Shown here one piece after another: positions 6,861-55,361 of a stretch of DNA of 64,000 nucleotides. The notes beneath the pieces are model-generated. The model was not told where the DNA came from, did no database searches, and worked only from the letters and a program-made list of their open reading frames with translations. This DNA comes from Candidatus Atabeyarchaeum deiterrae (GTDB lineage: Archaea > Asgardarchaeota > Atabeyarchaeia > Atabeyarchaeales > Atabeyarchaeaceae), in contig CP147780.1 in the NCBI GenBank assembly GCA_037310415.1, forward strand, positions 2,176,001 through 2,240,000, in the 5' to 3' direction. Position 1 is the first letter of the stretch. The number at the start of each line of letters is the position of its first letter. Both the position numbers and the translations under genes were made by a program.

Positions 6861-7124
6861 TCACACCTTTCGGTACGCCTCTCTCCGGTGGCGAACATAG
6901 AAAATGGTTAGGATCCTTGATTTGGTCTCAATCTCGTAAATGACTCTGTAGTCACCTACGCGAATTCGATAGAGTTGTTCTGCTCCTCGAAGTTTGCGGA
7001 GCCCAGGAGGGAAAGGATTGCCTGCAAGAGATTCGACGGCGCTGATTATGCGGGCGACTTGTTGGCGATCAATGCTCCTCAGGTCTCGTTCCGCTGACCG
7101 CTTCCATCGTATTTCATACTTCAT
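6861..7124 (-). CDS. relE: RelE/ParE family type II toxin (mRNA interferase)
   Basis: 87 aa, basic; KLRG..YRIRVGDYRVIYEI..VRHRREAY signature. Confidence 0.9.
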   Translation of the reverse strand: MKYEIRWKRSAERDLRSIDRQQVARIISAVESLAGNPFPPGLRKLRGAEQLYRIRVGDYRVIYEIETKSRILTIFYVRHRREAYRKV

Positions 7125-7369
7125 AGCAACCCGTCTTCTTTCAGTTTCTCCTTGAGTTCACCGAAAGAAACTGTGGGTTCGTCTCGGCGCTCAGCAATGA
7201 CGGCAAGGTCATGCAGATCCTCAAGGAGTTCCTCGTACTCCTCAATCGGTAGGATTATCGCTTTTCTCTGGCCTTCTTCATTCACGATGTACCGATCGTC
7301 GACTTCTTTCTTCAACTTTGACCCTCTCTCAAATCTACTCCCGCGGGGCTTTATAAGATTTCGGCTCAT
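7121..7369 (-). CDS. Type II antitoxin (RelB/Phd-like), cognate of the downstream toxin; start may be TTG at 7315
   Basis: Acidic; AIILPIEEYEELLEDLHDL..E..VSF motif; 4-nt ATGA overlap with the toxin start. Confidence 0.8.
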   Translation of the reverse strand: MSRNLIKPRGSRFERGSKLKKEVDDRYIVNEEGQRKAIILPIEEYEELLEDLHDLAVIAERRDEPTVSFGELKEKLKEDGLL

Positions 7370-7659
7370 CTGACTTGGCTGTTACCTTGAACGGTTAGCG
7401 CGATGGTATGCGAGGTATTTTGGGTGGGAAGCGGTCGGTGCCAGCTGTGCAGGTGAATGGGCGCCTGCCCTTTATCAACGTAGTGAAGGAAGATTGAATG
7501 AGAATCAAGCAGGAGAATGGAAAAAGAAGGGGCGGAACATCAGGACTTTACATGTTTTTCCCACTCAGTTTCTTGCACATGGCTGGCAAGCCGAGAGGTC
7601 GCTGTTACCTGGACTATGTTCGAAGGCAGTGAGTGGATCCTCTGTAGTCCAAGGAATGG

Positions 7660-7880
7660 CTAAGCAGTGTATATTTCGGCTTCCCACGGATCCTGTTCAG
7701 ATCGGATTCTCCTCATGGTCCATATCGCCTGTCTTTGTCCAAGACCGACATGAGTTTGGCAAGGTGCTTACAGAGCATCTTCCGCGCAGCCACTTTGCCC
7801 CAGTCTGCACAGTCGTGAAGTGTGACTTTTTTGTCGGTGTCGATGACTTAGTTAAGCTCATGGATAAGTCTAATCCAAGT
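7660..7880 (-). pseudogene. Degraded SWIM-type zinc-finger protein remnant
   Basis: Manual minus-strand translation gives VIDTDKKVTLHDCADWGKVAARKMLCKHLAKLM (CxD..CKH pattern), with an in-frame TAA at 7848-7850 just upstream and an apparent frameshift near 7725. Confidence 0.55.
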
Positions 7881-8191
7881 ATCCTTGATTCCATGGTTCT
7901 ACAGAACACAACGCTTACACAAGCTAGTAGAGAGCCCGCTATGCAACTGCTCTTCAGTGAAGAATACTTGAGAATACGTGCGCGCTGCAAGGCGGTGGAA
8001 CCAAAAAAAGAGGGTTGATGAGTTCTGTAACTTCACAAAGTTGTAGAACGTAACTTCTTACATCCTCCTACAATGTCTAACTGAAGATGTATTTGCAGCG
8101 CGGGTTGGAGTTGTAGAAGTTGACCTACCAAGAAATGCTGAAATAGTCCAACGTTCAACATATGCTTAACGATTCGTCCGGCAATTAAAGT

Positions 8192-52634: not shown

Positions 52635-53117
52635 CTACAGCTTGTATCCGATCTTGCGAAGCAGCTCTTTTCGTTCGCGAATATCTTTCTCAGTTTCAAT
52701 GCCCCTTGGCATGCTGCCATCTATCACACCAAGAATTCCTCTACCTTGATCCGTTTCAGCAACGATTATTTCTACAGGGTTTGCAGTAGAGCAGAAAACT
52801 GAGCAGACCTCTGGAACCTCCTTTATTCTGTTCAGAATGTTGATTGGATAAAAATCACGCATGAACACTATGAAACAGTGTCCGCAGCCTATCTTTGAAG
52901 CAGCCTCTGCCGCCAACTTCTTGAGTTCGTCGTCCGTGCCTGAAAGACGAACCAAACATGGACCACTTGATTCGCAGAATGCGAGTCCAAATTTGGCACC
53001 CGGGACAGCGGTCACAACGCTCTCATGAATGTCTTCCACTGTCTTAATGAAGTGGGACTGTCCCAATATCAAGTTACAATTCCTCGGAGCCTCAATCTTC
53101 ACGACTTTCAACTCCAT
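52635..53117 (-). CDS. Adenosine-specific kinase family protein (DUF355-type)
   Basis: [57 protein letters not shown]. Confidence 0.85.
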
Positions 53118-53226
53118 CCCGCTCATCCTCCGCTCAAAACAGCTTACTGCCCTCTCCAATTGGCGCTTCTTTTTTTGTCGCTAGACTGGATTGAATAATA
53201 CTCAGCTTATAATATTTGTGAGAAAC

Positions 53227-54447
53227 TGTTTTGTTAACTCTTCGGGTGGTAGTTTTTATACGTGAAATACCTCGTCTTAGGTATGCAAGTAATCAAAGCA
53301 GTCAAGCAAAGCTACACGCCATCCCCCCAGTTGCTTAACCTCTTGCACGAGTTTAGGAAGATGGTGAATGATTGTATACGGGTTGGCTTGGCTGAGAACG
53401 TTACTTCGATGAAGGCTCTTTCAAAGAAGGCTTATCATGAACTTGCAAGACATGATGTGCCAACCTACTACCGTTTGACTGCGATTAGTAAAGCTGCTGG
53501 CATCCTTCGGAATTACAGGCACGCTCTAAGAAGGAAGCAGCCGAGGGTGAAGAAGCCGTATGCGATTAAGCCCATGCTCACTGACTGCTACGGTTTCAAG
53601 ATAATCAACGGCAAGCTCAGACTACCGATCAGAGCAAGAGAATACGTTTACATCCCATTGAACGCTTACGTGTTGCGGTCTATTGAGGGCCATGCTGCGC
53701 GATCAGTCTGTCTGACTACTTGCACCGTATCGGCGGCTTACTCGAAAGAAGCTACTCAGATTGAGCCTGTAGGGCTAATCGGGATTGACCGCAACCTCGA
53801 CAACGTAACCACAGCATCTTCAGACGGAAAGGTGAAACGATATGACCTGTCAAAAGTGACCAAAATCAAAGAAAACTGCAGGCAGGCTAAGCGAGGCTTC
53901 AGAAGAAATGACTACCGCATCATGAAACACCTCTATTCCAAATATGGGAGAATCCAAAAGAGCAAAGTGAATTGGATACTGCACAACGCTTCCGCAAGCA
54001 TAGTGAGACAGGCGAAAGAAGAACAGTTCGGCATAGTCATGGAAGACATCAGGGGCATCCGTAAGCTCTACAGAAAGGGAAACTGGCAAGGAAAAGACTA
54101 CAGAGCAAGATTGAACGGTTGGAGCTACGCTGAGCTGCAACGGCAAATAGAGTACAAGGCACGTTGGGAAGGTATCCCCGTGTTTTACGTTCATTCATCC
54201 AAGACTTCTTCAGTCTGCGCGATATGTGGCTGTAACATAGCTGAATGTGCAGGGAGGAAGGTCTACTGTCCATGCTGCAATAGGCTCGTGGACAGGGATG
54301 AGAACGCGGCTTTGAATATTGTCGGCGCAGGGCTGCGGTTCAGCCTGAAGGGAGTAGCAGCTGAAGCAGTGAAGGGGAACCCTGAAAAGGTAATCCTCCG
54401 AGCAGATGCCACCCAGTTAACTCATCACCCGAAGAGTTAACAGAACC
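53227..54447 (+). mobile_element. Non-autonomous TnpB-carrying element with 24-bp terminal inverted repeats and an 8-bp target-site duplication
   Basis: Left end TGTTTTGTTAACTCTTCGGGTGGT vs reverse complement of right end GGTTCTGTTAACTCTTCGGGTGAT (21/24); TGAGAAAC at 53219-53226 and 54448-54455. Confidence 0.88.
53283..54440 (+). CDS. tnpB: RNA-guided endonuclease TnpB
   Basis: RuvC-I GIDRN, RuvC-II VMEDI, QIEYKA, TSS.CAICG..CPCC zinc finger, RuvC-III DRDENAALNI; ATG at 53283. Confidence 0.93.
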   Translation: MQVIKAVKQSYTPSPQLLNLLHEFRKMVNDCIRVGLAENVTSMKALSKKAYHELARHDVPTYYRLTAISKAAGILRNYRHALRRKQPRVKKPYAIKPMLTDCYGFKIINGKLRLPIRAREYVYIPLNAYVLRSIEGHAARSVCLTTCTVSAAYSKEATQIEPVGLIGIDRNLDNVTTASSDGKVKRYDLSKVTKIKENCRQAKRGFRRNDYRIMKHLYSKYGRIQKSKVNWILHNASASIVRQAKEEQFGIVMEDIRGIRKLYRKGNWQGKDYRARLNGWSYAELQRQIEYKARWEGIPVFYVHSSKTSSVCAICGCNIAECAGRKVYCPCCNRLVDRDENAALNIVGAGLRFSLKGVAAEAVKGNPEKVILRADATQLTHHPKS

Positions 54448-54557
54448 TGAGAAACGATGCTGACTTAGTTTGACTCGATCCTCATACTCTTTTATTAAGG
54501 GGTTAAAAGCTAATCCCTAGCATCGAAGAATAGAAAAGTATCCCAAGAAAGGCTGAA

Positions 54558-55361
54558 GTGAGTGGTGTAGTAGAAATGGGTTCGCTCGTTTTGGTCGAGA
54601 AGAAAGACAGGCTGACCAAGGTCATTCTCAATAGAGAAGATAGGAGAAATGCATTCAATCAAGATCTCTTGTCAGATCTCGGGGCTGCTCTTAAAGCGGT
54701 TCGAGACGATTCAGACTGCTTGGGGGTAATCGTGACAGGCGTAGGACCAGTCTTCTCATCAGGACTTGACCTGAAGGCTTTTCAAGACGGGTTTGCCTCA
54801 AGCCATCAAGATCCATCAGGGATTATTCGCCTTGTCCAAGATACCTTCACCGCTCTGGAGGACATGGAGAAGCCAACCCTTGCAGCAGTGAACGGTACGG
54901 CTACGGGGATGGGACTGGAACTTGCTCTGGCATGTGATTTTAGAATCGCCTCGGATGATTGCAGACTGAGTCTTCCTGAAGTATGCCTCGGCATCATGCC
55001 TGACATCGGTGGTGCTATGCTTCCAAAGCTTGTAGGTCTTGGCATCGCGAAGGAGATAGCTTTGACAGGTCAAGTGATTGATGCTCAGAGGGCCGAAAGG
55101 ATCGGACTGGTAAACAAGGTCGTTCCGCCCAGTGAATTAATGGTCGAAGCTGAGAATTTCGTCCGCCAGATAATAGAAAACAGCCCCATCGCAGTCAGAT
55201 CCACGAAGACATTGATGAACAAAGCTTTCCAATTGGATCCAAAAACGATGGCTGAGTACACAATAGACCTACAGCTTCAGTGCCTTAAGTCAAATGATCT
55301 TCTACGCTACGCAGCAAATTACATCTCAAAAAGAATCAAGCTGCCGCCGAAACCCAACTGA
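54558..55361 (+). CDS. Enoyl-CoA hydratase/isomerase family protein
   Basis: LNR..RNA, FSSGLDL, KP..AAVNG.A.G.GLELALACDFR, LPEV.LG..P, A.RIGLVN. Confidence 0.92.
   Translation: MSGVVEMGSLVLVEKKDRLTKVILNREDRRNAFNQDLLSDLGAALKAVRDDSDCLGVIVTGVGPVFSSGLDLKAFQDGFASSHQDPSGIIRLVQDTFTALEDMEKPTLAAVNGTATGMGLELALACDFRIASDDCRLSLPEVCLGIMPDIGGAMLPKLVGLGIAKEIALTGQVIDAQRAERIGLVNKVVPPSELMVEAENFVRQIIENSPIAVRSTKTLMNKAFQLDPKTMAEYTIDLQLQCLKSNDLLRYAANYISKRIKLPPKPN

Follow-up and report, generated by a model that had tools for sequence, protein, structure and literature searches.

An Asgard archaeal TnpB in an IS6-like, 8-bp-duplicating element that most probably moves in trans, with a predicted guide RNA at its right end

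How does a tnpB gene come to lie alone between inverted repeats and an 8-bp target-site duplication, and what could an RNA-guided nuclease do for an element of that kind? In its accepted role TnpB restores IS200/IS605 and IS607 elements that have excised without leaving a scar, which depends on a site-specific transposase always landing beside the TAM. IS200/IS605 elements have neither inverted ends nor a duplication and are moved single-stranded by a Y1 HUH transposase (PMC13565253). The question arises from an element in Candidatus Atabeyarchaeum deiterrae (GCA_037310415.1, contig CP147780.1), within the forward-strand stretch 2,176,001-2,240,000, which was analysed as a whole and is here called the window (64,000 nt, positions 1-64,000). 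Direct reading of the sequence together with a list of open reading frames leaves tnpB as the sole credible gene of the 1221-bp segment 53227-54447, whose two ends form 24-bp inverted repeats identical at 21/24 positions and are flanked by an exact 8-bp direct repeat, TGAGAAAC (Table 1), in full agreement with the preliminary description of this DNA. The insertion locus is intergenic, with an adenosine-kinase gene on one side and an enoyl-CoA hydratase gene on the other, and the site reads TTG followed directly by TGAGAAAC.

Table 1. The TnpB element and its flanks, in window coordinates
Feature	Position	Strand	Basis
Candidate TAM, TTG abutting the left duplication on its 5' side	53216-53218	+	TTG/TTA in 27/37 independent insertions
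Left target-site duplication TGAGAAAC	53219-53226	.	Single copy in the empty site, run X7
Left terminal inverted repeat, degenerate tip TGTTTTG versus GGTTCTG	53227-53250	+	Repeat comparison
TATA-like box TTTTTATA, about 26 nt ahead of the ATG	53253-53260	+	Read from the sequence
tnpB, 385 aa, RuvC D-E-D and CxxC...CxxC zinc finger intact	53283-54440	+	Open reading frame, profiles, alignment
Predicted omega RNA scaffold overlapping the tnpB 3' end	54337-54447	+	RNAalifold and pair counts
Right terminal inverted repeat, reading inward GGTTCTGTTAACTCTTCGGGTGAT	54424-54447	-	Repeat comparison; tip GGTTC in 100% of 37 elements
Right duplication TGAGAAAC, predicted guide nt 1-8	54448-54455	.	Guide role inferred from the scaffold end at 54447
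Predicted guide, reading through about 16-20 nt of the flank	54448-54467	+	Analogy with ISDra2-type omega RNAs

The tnpB gene is intact. Translation may start at ATG 53283 or GTG 53262, and the stop codon (54438-54440) lies inside the right repeat, 7 bp from the right end of the element. The product scores 61.7 bits against Pfam PF07282 (cut-off 26.3) and 116 bits against the NCBIfam profile guided_TnpB NF040570 (cut-off 100), and its nearest solved structure is ISDra2 TnpB (8bf8/8exa, E 1.9e-9). The RuvC acidic residues and the zinc finger, seen at the outset in this one protein, proved invariant in an alignment of 19 relatives with 39-82% identity, namely D176, E261 and D344 (codons at 53787-89, 54042-44 and 54291-93) and C319, C322, C336 and C339 (P0001 numbering). 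Triad, zinc finger and profile score place the window protein among the TnpB/OMEGA RNA-guided nucleases.

Related elements reveal what the flanking 8-mer is. Inverted repeats were sought around 80 TnpB loci with a repeat finder anchored on the GGTTCTG tip, a pair being accepted at 16/24 or more; 34/80 loci had no such pair and were left out, many of them, by eye, decayed or cut by contig ends. Homologues number about 2000 in total. Of 46 related elements in other genomes, 23 or more are flanked by exact 8-mers that differ from one another, and further exact, differing 8-mers surround several elements of three Atabeyarchaeia genomes. In all, 58 unique TnpB-only elements with these ends were collected from Asgard archaea, Bathyarchaeia and Nitrososphaeria, 37 of which have duplications matching at 7-8/8 positions, every one of a different sequence; two relatives (L056 and L091) have 9-bp duplications. 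An 8/8 flank match is expected by chance once in 65,536 per element, which together with the differing exact 8-mers around related elements excludes a chance pattern for the flank repeat. Since the duplications of other copies differ in sequence, TGAGAAAC is target DNA and lies outside the element. The empty allele is present as well, in a strain about 96% identical from a soil metagenome (run X7), where the same flanks enclose a single TGAGAAAC and 53218 is joined to 54448; runs X2 and X4 hold the filled site only and run X6 holds fragments of relatives. With two copies of the 8-mer here and one in the empty allele, the 8-mer was duplicated on insertion. Both kinds of evidence, copies with other duplications and an empty site with one 8-mer, had been named in the preliminary description as what its reading should lead to. 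Within this genome, a DNA search detected no second copy of the window element, and a search with the repeat core returned the two known ends and two weak, chance-like matches, nothing more; a second, diverged element was found by protein search only, with a TnpB 42% identical, a perfect 22-bp repeat and the duplication TATATGAA.

The same ends lead to a transposase. SWIM-zinc-finger IS6-like DDE transposases are located between the same GGTTCTGT... ends and within 8-bp duplications; in metagenomes, a transposase lies within such ends at 55/80 loci, 43 of these elements being unique and having duplications of 7-8/8. In a sister genome, one such element (L046:6277-12830, transposase gene at 6897-8048) has the duplication TGGAGAAC and a right end identical at 23/24 positions to that of the window element, and another (L047:6150-10568), also transposase-bearing, has ends identical to those of the second element type. 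A further intact SWIM-DDE transposase gene is L021:4286-5470. One intact transposase copy is present in the genome studied here, with ends 20/24 identical and without a flanking duplication. The partner elements span 2.2-7.9 kb and bear cargo. Their transposases score 62-65 bits against PF13610 (DDE_Tnp_IS240; cut-off 27) and 118-121 bits over the full length of the IS6 profile NF033587, their best NCBIfam match, which is below its cut-off of 125; residues D217, D276 and E315/E320 are invariant, and a sequence search of the PDB with the transposase returned no matches. No tnpB lies inside any of the 55 transposase elements, and no transposase lies within 3 kb of tnpB at any of the 80 TnpB loci, arguing that the TnpB elements are non-autonomous; tnpB being alone in the window element, this copy likewise encodes no IS6-type DDE transposase and is non-autonomous. 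Trans-mobilisation is suggested by the shared ends together with the shared 8-bp duplications. The preliminary description, which took the locus for a TnpB in an IS6-like DDE transposon mobilised in trans by an autonomous partner, is thus borne out in its main idea by shared ends, duplications and partner transposases.

How closely do these elements conform to the IS6 family? The right end of the window element, GGTTCTGTT, which we take to match IS257-type ends, is a short terminal repeat with a GG tip and the cTGTt motif. Across the family, GG and CTGTT reach 84-100% in the consensus, and a 'caaa' motif is missing from most members. The left tip of the window element, TGTTTTGTT, breaks the IS6 GG rule, and across 37 elements conservation is lower at the left tip than at the right. 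Given the mutated left tip, transposase-driven movement of the window copy is probably impaired; its TnpB and scaffold look intact. IS6 ends are described as short terminal repeats that are tipped with GG and contain cTGTt (PMC7986276), and typical IS6 members are about 800 bp long with one gene; a single passenger-gene member is listed, some longer members have an additional zinc-finger or N-terminal domain, and two MITEs are on record (PMC7986276). The elements studied here resemble IS26 and IS257 in the direct 8-bp duplication (two copies of TGAGAAAC here, one in the empty site, and duplications in 37 relatives), in GG-tipped CTGTT repeats and in an IS240-type DDE domain, the last residing in the partners. 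They differ from that family in that the partner elements carry cargo, which is atypical, and an extra SWIM finger, and in that the window element has no transposase.

A structured RNA is predicted at the right end. Covariation supports a guide-RNA scaffold of about 110 nt at the last bases of the element. In the predicted fold, 54337-41 pairs with 54443-47 in a closing helix, 54353-58 and 54408-13 form a stem, an inner stem joins 54375-79 to 54394-98 and 54381-82 to 54389-90, and 54416-21 folds back on 54436-41 as the terminal hairpin. The structure is based on alignment alone: across 38 right ends, RNAalifold finds compensatory changes in 10/17 pairs, and the inner stem, absent from its output, had its pairs counted separately by script. 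The closing helix is invariant across right ends and its 5' strand also codes for a conserved Arg-Phe, so this helix is without covariation support. Folded as a lone sequence, the last 178 nt are no more stable than shuffles (z -0.98), and an Rfam search of 53100-54600 gave no matches. The covarying helices are, by computation, consistent with what is expected of OMEGA systems, that is, a structured RNA over the 3' end of the gene that stops at the right end. In this prediction the right inverted repeat supplies the 3' sides of both the terminal hairpin and the closing helix. The last five scaffold nucleotides, GAACC, which make up the right-repeat tip, pair with an upstream GGUUC, such that one DNA tip would serve both transposase recognition and RNA structure. 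Because the last bases of the scaffold are the right repeat, ending at 54447, the guide would start with the duplicated 8-mer and continue into the right flank, and its predicted length by analogy is about 16-20 nt from the right end.

If the guide reads the right flank, a TAM would have to lie beside the left duplication, and the flanks of independent insertions carry a sharp one-sided signal at exactly that place. TTG or TTA (TTR) immediately precedes the left duplication in 27/37 insertions and is seen at the mirrored right position in 6/37 (Fisher p 1.5e-6), against a background frequency of 4.6%. At positions -3 to -1 the left flank has T in 30/37, T in 35/37 and R in 35/37, with little information elsewhere; farther upstream it is A/T-rich, with A at -8 in 18/37. 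The -1 base tracks the TnpB clade, being G in the clade of the window protein and A in the other. We propose TTR as a candidate TAM of this TnpB. Transposase-bearing elements have TTG/TTA in 10/43 on each side (versus 27/37 for TnpB elements, p 1.3e-5) and favour, on either side, T at -2 (about 73%) and G at -1, arguing that the motif is in part a transposase preference. This two-sided preference, together with the A/T-rich left flank and the frequent A at -8, would also suit a reading in which IS6-type mobilisation holds but the one-sided TTR reflects the target preference of the transposase plus an orientation bias, for example if selection favours landing where AT-rich promoter DNA lies upstream and can drive tnpB, with no TAM role. 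We regard that reading, the promoter selection included, as unlikely: the enrichment is confined sharply to -3 to -1, TTR is strongly one-sided in TnpB elements while the preference of the transposase is symmetric, the -1 base follows the TnpB clade, and the element seems to carry a TATA-like box of its own. This box is a putative promoter internal to the element, from which a leaderless tnpB mRNA could be made, and in the paralogous element TTTAAATA has the same spacing.

Collectively, the comparisons make it probable that the window element is a non-autonomous IS6-like element with TnpB and its guide RNA as only cargo, moved in trans. The element landed at TTG-TGAGAAAC, the 8-mer being duplicated on insertion, and a SWIM-zinc-finger IS6-like DDE transposase from separate cargo transposons would recognise the ends and move the element in trans. 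The last ~110 nt would provide the scaffold of a guide RNA whose guide reads the duplicated 8-mer and the right flank; in the empty allele, the TTG/TTA of the left flank precedes the guide-matching sequence and would act as the TAM. Empty alleles elsewhere, in further copies of the genome or in other cells, would then be possible targets for cutting by the TnpB complex, and repair would copy the element in, a form of homing or retention. Such cutting would explain why TTR is nearly always on the tnpB-5' side only in surviving insertions, and a weak two-sided T-T-G preference of the transposase would supply the TTR sites. Since IS6 members are thought to transpose by copy-in and not to excise, the classical role of TnpB in restoring an excised site would not apply, and homing is offered here as a conjecture. 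What calls for explanation is an intact, widespread TnpB lineage in 8-bp-duplicating, variable-site elements of a transposase family thought not to excise. Putting the parts together, we tentatively suggest, at slightly less than an even chance, that this TnpB lineage is an obligate hitch-hiker on IS6-like transposons: the right-repeat tip to which the transposase binds would at once be part of the guide-RNA closing helix, the duplication would supply the first bases of the guide, and a clade-dependent TAM (TTG or TTA) would be matched to the weak symmetric preference of the transposase. Only insertions beside a TAM and in the proper orientation could then be driven through polyploid genomes or populations by the cutting of empty alleles. 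Were this so, TnpB would be a genuine gene drive and not a device for repairing excised sites.

Against a part for TnpB in the spread of the element, it may be said that IS6-type copy-in leaves no empty donor site in need of repair, that the left end of the window copy is damaged and that exapted TnpBs are known (PMC10691335), all of which would suit a passive or domesticated passenger, either a guide-RNA-directed repressor or a decaying gene. We consider a passenger of this sort quite improbable, given that the D-E-D triad and zinc finger have stayed invariant in 19 relatives as divergent as 39-82% identity, that tnpB frames are open in most copies of three Atabeyarchaeia genomes, that the scaffold helices covary, and that the elements are multicopy with fresh duplications. 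An ordinary IS1341-type IS200/IS605 element with a Y1 TnpA as its mover, with the repeats as subterminal hairpins and the duplication as a target or cleavage motif, is hardly credible even though TnpB-only elements are usually of that kind, the short conserved TTR at the left flank recalls IS605 targets and one Y1 TnpA is present in this genome: that TnpA adjoins a distant TnpB (E 1.5e-4 to that of the window), a Y1 gene lies near only 1/80 loci and outside the ends, neither a Y1 nor a serine transposase was found as a partner, in keeping with the initial view, the ends are common to DDE-transposase elements, and flanking 8-mers that differ in every copy together with exactly one 8-mer in the empty site already contradict it.

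The favoured reading, an IS6-like element moved in trans, can be set beside known systems. With ISDra2, IS608 and IS1341 of the IS200/IS605 group, the element shares the TnpB fold family, a scaffold running over the 3' end of the gene to the right end and a T-rich left motif, the TTR being its only resemblance in the traits that define IS200/IS605 (IS1341) elements; unlike in those, the guide here would begin in the duplicated target and the TAM would not be set by a site-specific transposase. Broad surveys were already said at the outset to have noted TnpB with other transposases, and the part of Altae-Tran 2023 (PNAS, PMC10691335) that we draw on does describe six DDE-linked TnpB branches (DDE-1 to DDE-6) with inverted ends, as well as solo TnpBs that share ends with transposase-bearing elements, implying trans mobilisation. 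Like those, the TnpB studied here lies between the inverted repeats of a DDE transposon with its 3' end near the element end (7 bp here and, family-wide, 10-145 bp past the tblastn TnpB match, within the 250 bp used for DDE-TnpBs). Unlike those, in which some members have TnpB and transposase together, the two are never in one element here (0/80 and 0/55); the overlap of end and RNA scaffold and the one-sided motif by the 8-bp duplication, present here, are not described in that part of the paper. The DDE partner families named in the same part are IS630 (PMC10691335) and, in the relevant part of a review, ISL2, IS630 and IS1031 (PMC13565253). In the parts of the published texts covered, none was found that names IS6 as a TnpB partner, and the clade may be included in the supplementary tables of Altae-Tran 2023. 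DDE-linked TnpB and trans-mobilised solo TnpBs were thus known from what PMC10691335 reports in that part, and the present comparisons support adding an IS6-like partner, so that IS6-like elements join the transposons known to carry TnpB, Asgard archaea included. The published paper on mobile elements of Atabeyarchaeia does not mention TnpB. The Heimdallarchaeial 'aloposons' were considered as relatives and rejected, as their integration sites are tRNA genes and their content includes giant genes.

A eukaryotic parallel exists in Fanzors, which ride in DDE transposons (Mariner, hAT, MuDR and others) and in which the duplication or flank contributes to the TAM (PMC13565253). Both are TnpB homologues in inverted-repeat, duplication-making transposons; Fanzors, however, belong to eukaryotes or viruses and often have duplications that are short and fixed (TA, TTAA), whereas here the duplication is 8 bp and variable and the motif lies outside it. 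If the combined reading is right, this lineage would be for prokaryotes, Asgard archaea among them, the counterpart of what Fanzors are in DDE transposons. With a scaffold of about 110 nt, a predicted TAM and a guide that would be drawn from the duplication, the element offers a testable case for the benefit of an RNA-guided nuclease to a DDE transposon, and this compact archaeal TnpB clade, for which scaffold and TAM are predicted from sequence, provides candidate editors.

The sequence bears out the preliminary description of the window element (53219-54455) exactly: a 1221-bp segment with inverted ends and tnpB sits between two copies of the 8-mer TGAGAAAC. Its TnpB exceeds the cut-offs of Pfam PF07282 and NCBIfam "RNA-guided endonuclease TnpB", has ISDra2 TnpB as its nearest solved structure by sequence, and shares three RuvC acidic residues and four zinc-finger cysteines that are invariant in an alignment of 19 relatives (39-82% identity). 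The tnpB frame is also open to an alternative upstream start, GTG at 53262. Flanked by a kinase gene on the minus strand and a hydratase gene on the plus strand, the element occupies a short divergent intergenic region. A TATA-like box, TTTTTATA, lies about 26 nt upstream of the tnpB ATG, and a paralogous element has a similar box at equal distance from its start, which suggests that tnpB is transcribed from a promoter within the element, as a leaderless mRNA. Given its mutated left tip (TGTTTTG), a transposase may no longer be able to move this copy; its nuclease gene and predicted scaffold look intact.

Coordinates of the TnpB element, its predicted RNA structure, its neighbours and the related transposase-bearing segments
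Feature	Coordinates	Strand	Remarks
Target-site duplication TGAGAAAC	53219-53226 and 54448-54455		two copies read from sequence
Inverted ends	left 53227-53250, right 54424-54447		21/24 positions match
tnpB	start ATG 53283, stop codon 54438-54440		stop within right inverted repeat; sole credible gene in segment
Adenosine-specific kinase gene	52635-53159	minus	flanks the element
Enoyl-CoA hydratase gene	54558-55361	plus	flanks the element
Closing helix	54337-41 (GGUUC) with 54443-47 (GAACC)		paired in 38/38, invariant, without covariation support
Stem	54353-58 with 54408-13		both-sided changes in 8-17 sequences per pair
Inner stem	54375-79 with 54394-98, 54381-82 with 54389-90		several pair types per position
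Terminal hairpin	54416-21 with 54436-41		predicted
4322-bp segment, own genome	G000:C1:1515170-1519491 (L021:1171-5492)		outside the window; transposase at right end
6554-bp transposon, sister genome	L046:6277-12830		transposase and type IIG-like restriction-methylase gene
4419-bp transposon, sister genome	L047:6150-10568		ends identical to second TnpB element type

Three agreeing lines of evidence show that the flanking 8-mer is a target-site duplication. First, a second TnpB element, 34.6 kb past the window in the same genome (a single contig of 2.76 Mb), encodes a TnpB 42% identical to the window TnpB and has perfect 22-bp ends starting GGTTCTGTTACC, flanked by a different exact 8-mer, TATATGAA. 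Second, a survey that took in both sister genomes plus 80 loci in genomes of other archaea (40-81% protein identity; Bathyarchaeia, Nitrososphaeria/Thaumarchaeota, Methanomethylicota and others) yielded 58 unique TnpB elements with ends of the window type; the flanking 8-mers match at 7-8 of 8 positions in 37 of them, and all 37 sequences differ. The Atabeyarchaeia comparison took in three genomes, the whole class in the collection. Third, when contigs of four metagenome runs were compared with the window locus, a 347-nt contig, about 96% identical and belonging to another study's soil metagenome, was found to join 53170-53218 directly to 54448-54724, lacking exactly the element and one 8-mer; the filled site is present in runs of the source study and of a sediment study. 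The copies with differing duplications and the empty allele with a single 8-mer that the preliminary description had anticipated thus both exist, and, with duplications variable and the empty site single-copy, nothing that it had named as contrary to its reading was found.

The proposal that an IS6-like DDE transposase mobilises the element in trans implied an autonomous partner, and such a transposase is found between like ends with 8-bp duplications in the sister genome and in metagenomes. The window genome has one gene with an IS6-type DDE domain (Pfam DDE_Tnp_IS240), which is intact and encodes 394 aa; a SWIM zinc finger forms the N-terminal part of the protein, which also has a second zinc ribbon. 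This gene shares a segment of 4322 bp with a ParB-like gene (446 aa) and two unknown genes, and the inverted ends of the segment match the right end of the window element at 20/24 positions (and each other at 17/18 over the first 18 nt). The bordering 8-mers, TGGATTTC and AATTCTAG, differ and form no flanking duplication, so this segment may have been rearranged after insertion. In the sister genome, an Asgard archaeon of the Atabeyarchaeia, the 6554-bp transposon has TGGAGAAC as an exact flanking duplication, and at the right end 23/24 of its positions agree with the window element. The partner transposase gene lies inside such end pairs at 55 of 80 metagenome loci, among them 43 unique elements of 2.2-7.9 kb with 7-8/8 duplications. 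None of the 55 transposase-bearing elements contains tnpB, and the partner transposase is within 3 kb of none of 80 TnpB loci; a Y1 transposase gene, whose company would speak against the proposal, is near TnpB at one of 80 loci, outside the element ends. We regard trans mobilisation of the window element by the IS6-like transposase as well supported and very probable. The sole Y1 gene of the window genome accompanies a different, distant TnpB: at G000:C1:1377345-1378884 (loci L007 and L210), a Y1 TnpA fragment precedes this distant TnpB in an ordinary IS200/IS605-type pair, so that two unrelated TnpB carriers coexist in one genome.

With every element turned so that tnpB reads on the plus strand, the base triplet immediately 5' of the left duplication is T in 30/37, T in 35/37 and A or G in 35/37 elements; TTG or TTA (TTR) stands there in 27 of 37 independent insertions, versus 6/37 at the mirrored right position (left-right asymmetry, p 1.5e-6) and a flank background of 4.6%. 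In the window, TTG occupies 53216-53218 and is kept in the empty-site contig. We infer that the one-sided TTR is a candidate TAM, the recognition motif of TnpB. Because the predicted scaffold ends at the last base of the element, the guide would be the duplicated 8-mer plus the right flank. In the empty allele exactly this triplet stands before the predicted guide target, whereas ACC precedes it at the filled right junction and only 8 nt match at the filled left junction; for a guide so predicted, this placement is the geometry required of a TAM. The main rival explanation is that the motif reflects purely a preference in target or orientation, and in the 43 transposase elements either flank does favour T at -2 (about 73%) and, at -1, G (about 45%), approximating TTG-N8-CAA, with TTR at 10/43 on each side. 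That preference, however, is weaker and symmetric, TTR differs significantly between TnpB and transposase-bearing elements (Fisher p about 1e-5), and the -1 base tracks the TnpB clade: 5/5 elements in the clade of the window TnpB have G, whereas in the clade resembling locus L003, 5/6 have A (four of them as TTA) and none has G. Selection could enrich the candidate TAM by favouring insertions open to being driven or retained by the nuclease, and the weak T-T-G preference of the transposase may help. In two further elements (loci L056 and L091) the duplications are 9 bp, with TTA or TTG still directly upstream.

At the 3' ends of the elements, nucleotide conservation exceeds the need of the poorly conserved protein tail. 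When the terminal 180 nt of 38 elements are aligned, both RNAalifold and separate pair counts support a nested structure there. In this pairing scheme the terminal hairpin takes its 3' arm, and the closing helix its 3' strand, from the right inverted repeat; the 5' strand of the closing helix also codes for a conserved Arg-Phe. The predicted guide RNA has no Rfam family, and the single-sequence fold of the right end is unremarkable. All elements (100%) have GGTTC as their right tip, whereas the left tip is variable (G 84%, G 100%, T 54%, T 78%, C 92%); dual use of the right tip, as transposase end and as part of the predicted guide RNA, would explain this difference. The left tip often reads GGCT, GGCA or GGCG at positions 3-4 rather than GGTT, even with perfect duplications, while the right tip is constant. 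The IS26-type tip is GGCACTG.

In NCBIfam the partner transposase matches IS6 best, along the whole profile, at 118-121 bits against a cut-off of 125; its residues D217, D276 and E315/E320 are invariant. The ends resemble the IS6 family in their GG tips and CTGTT motif, as does the duplication of 8 bp (Varani et al. 2021, PMC7986276), whereas cargo, size and the extra SWIM domain set the partner transposons apart; given this partial fit, we call the ends and the transposase "IS6-like". In Altae-Tran et al. 2023 (PMC10691335), the six DDE-linked branches of TnpB all have inverted terminal repeats, and trans mobilisation is proposed for solo TnpBs that share their ends with transposase-bearing elements; a 2026 review (PMC13565253) gives ISL2, IS630 and IS1031 as the DDE partners of these branches. 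The principle of a trans-mobilised TnpB with DDE ends is thus already published, and the architecture alone is a variant of it. Within the texts searched, we found no paper linking TnpB to the IS6 family, and TnpB is unmentioned in the Atabeyarchaeia mobile-element paper. A TnpB lineage with IS6-like ends is widespread in archaea, including Asgard archaea; in it, one DNA tip would serve both the transposase and the predicted guide RNA, and the sharp one-sided motif beside a variable duplication offers a direct way to test what TnpB does in a DDE transposon.

The SWIM-zinc-finger IS6-like transposase (the 6554-bp sister-genome transposon and metagenome loci L128-L207) defines a large group of cargo-carrying transposons of 2.2-7.9 kb, flanked by 8-bp duplications. 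This group looks under-described, as the IS6 review (Varani et al. 2021, PMC7986276) names a single family member that carries a passenger gene. One member of the group carries a 995-aa restriction-methylase of the Eco57I/MmeI type.
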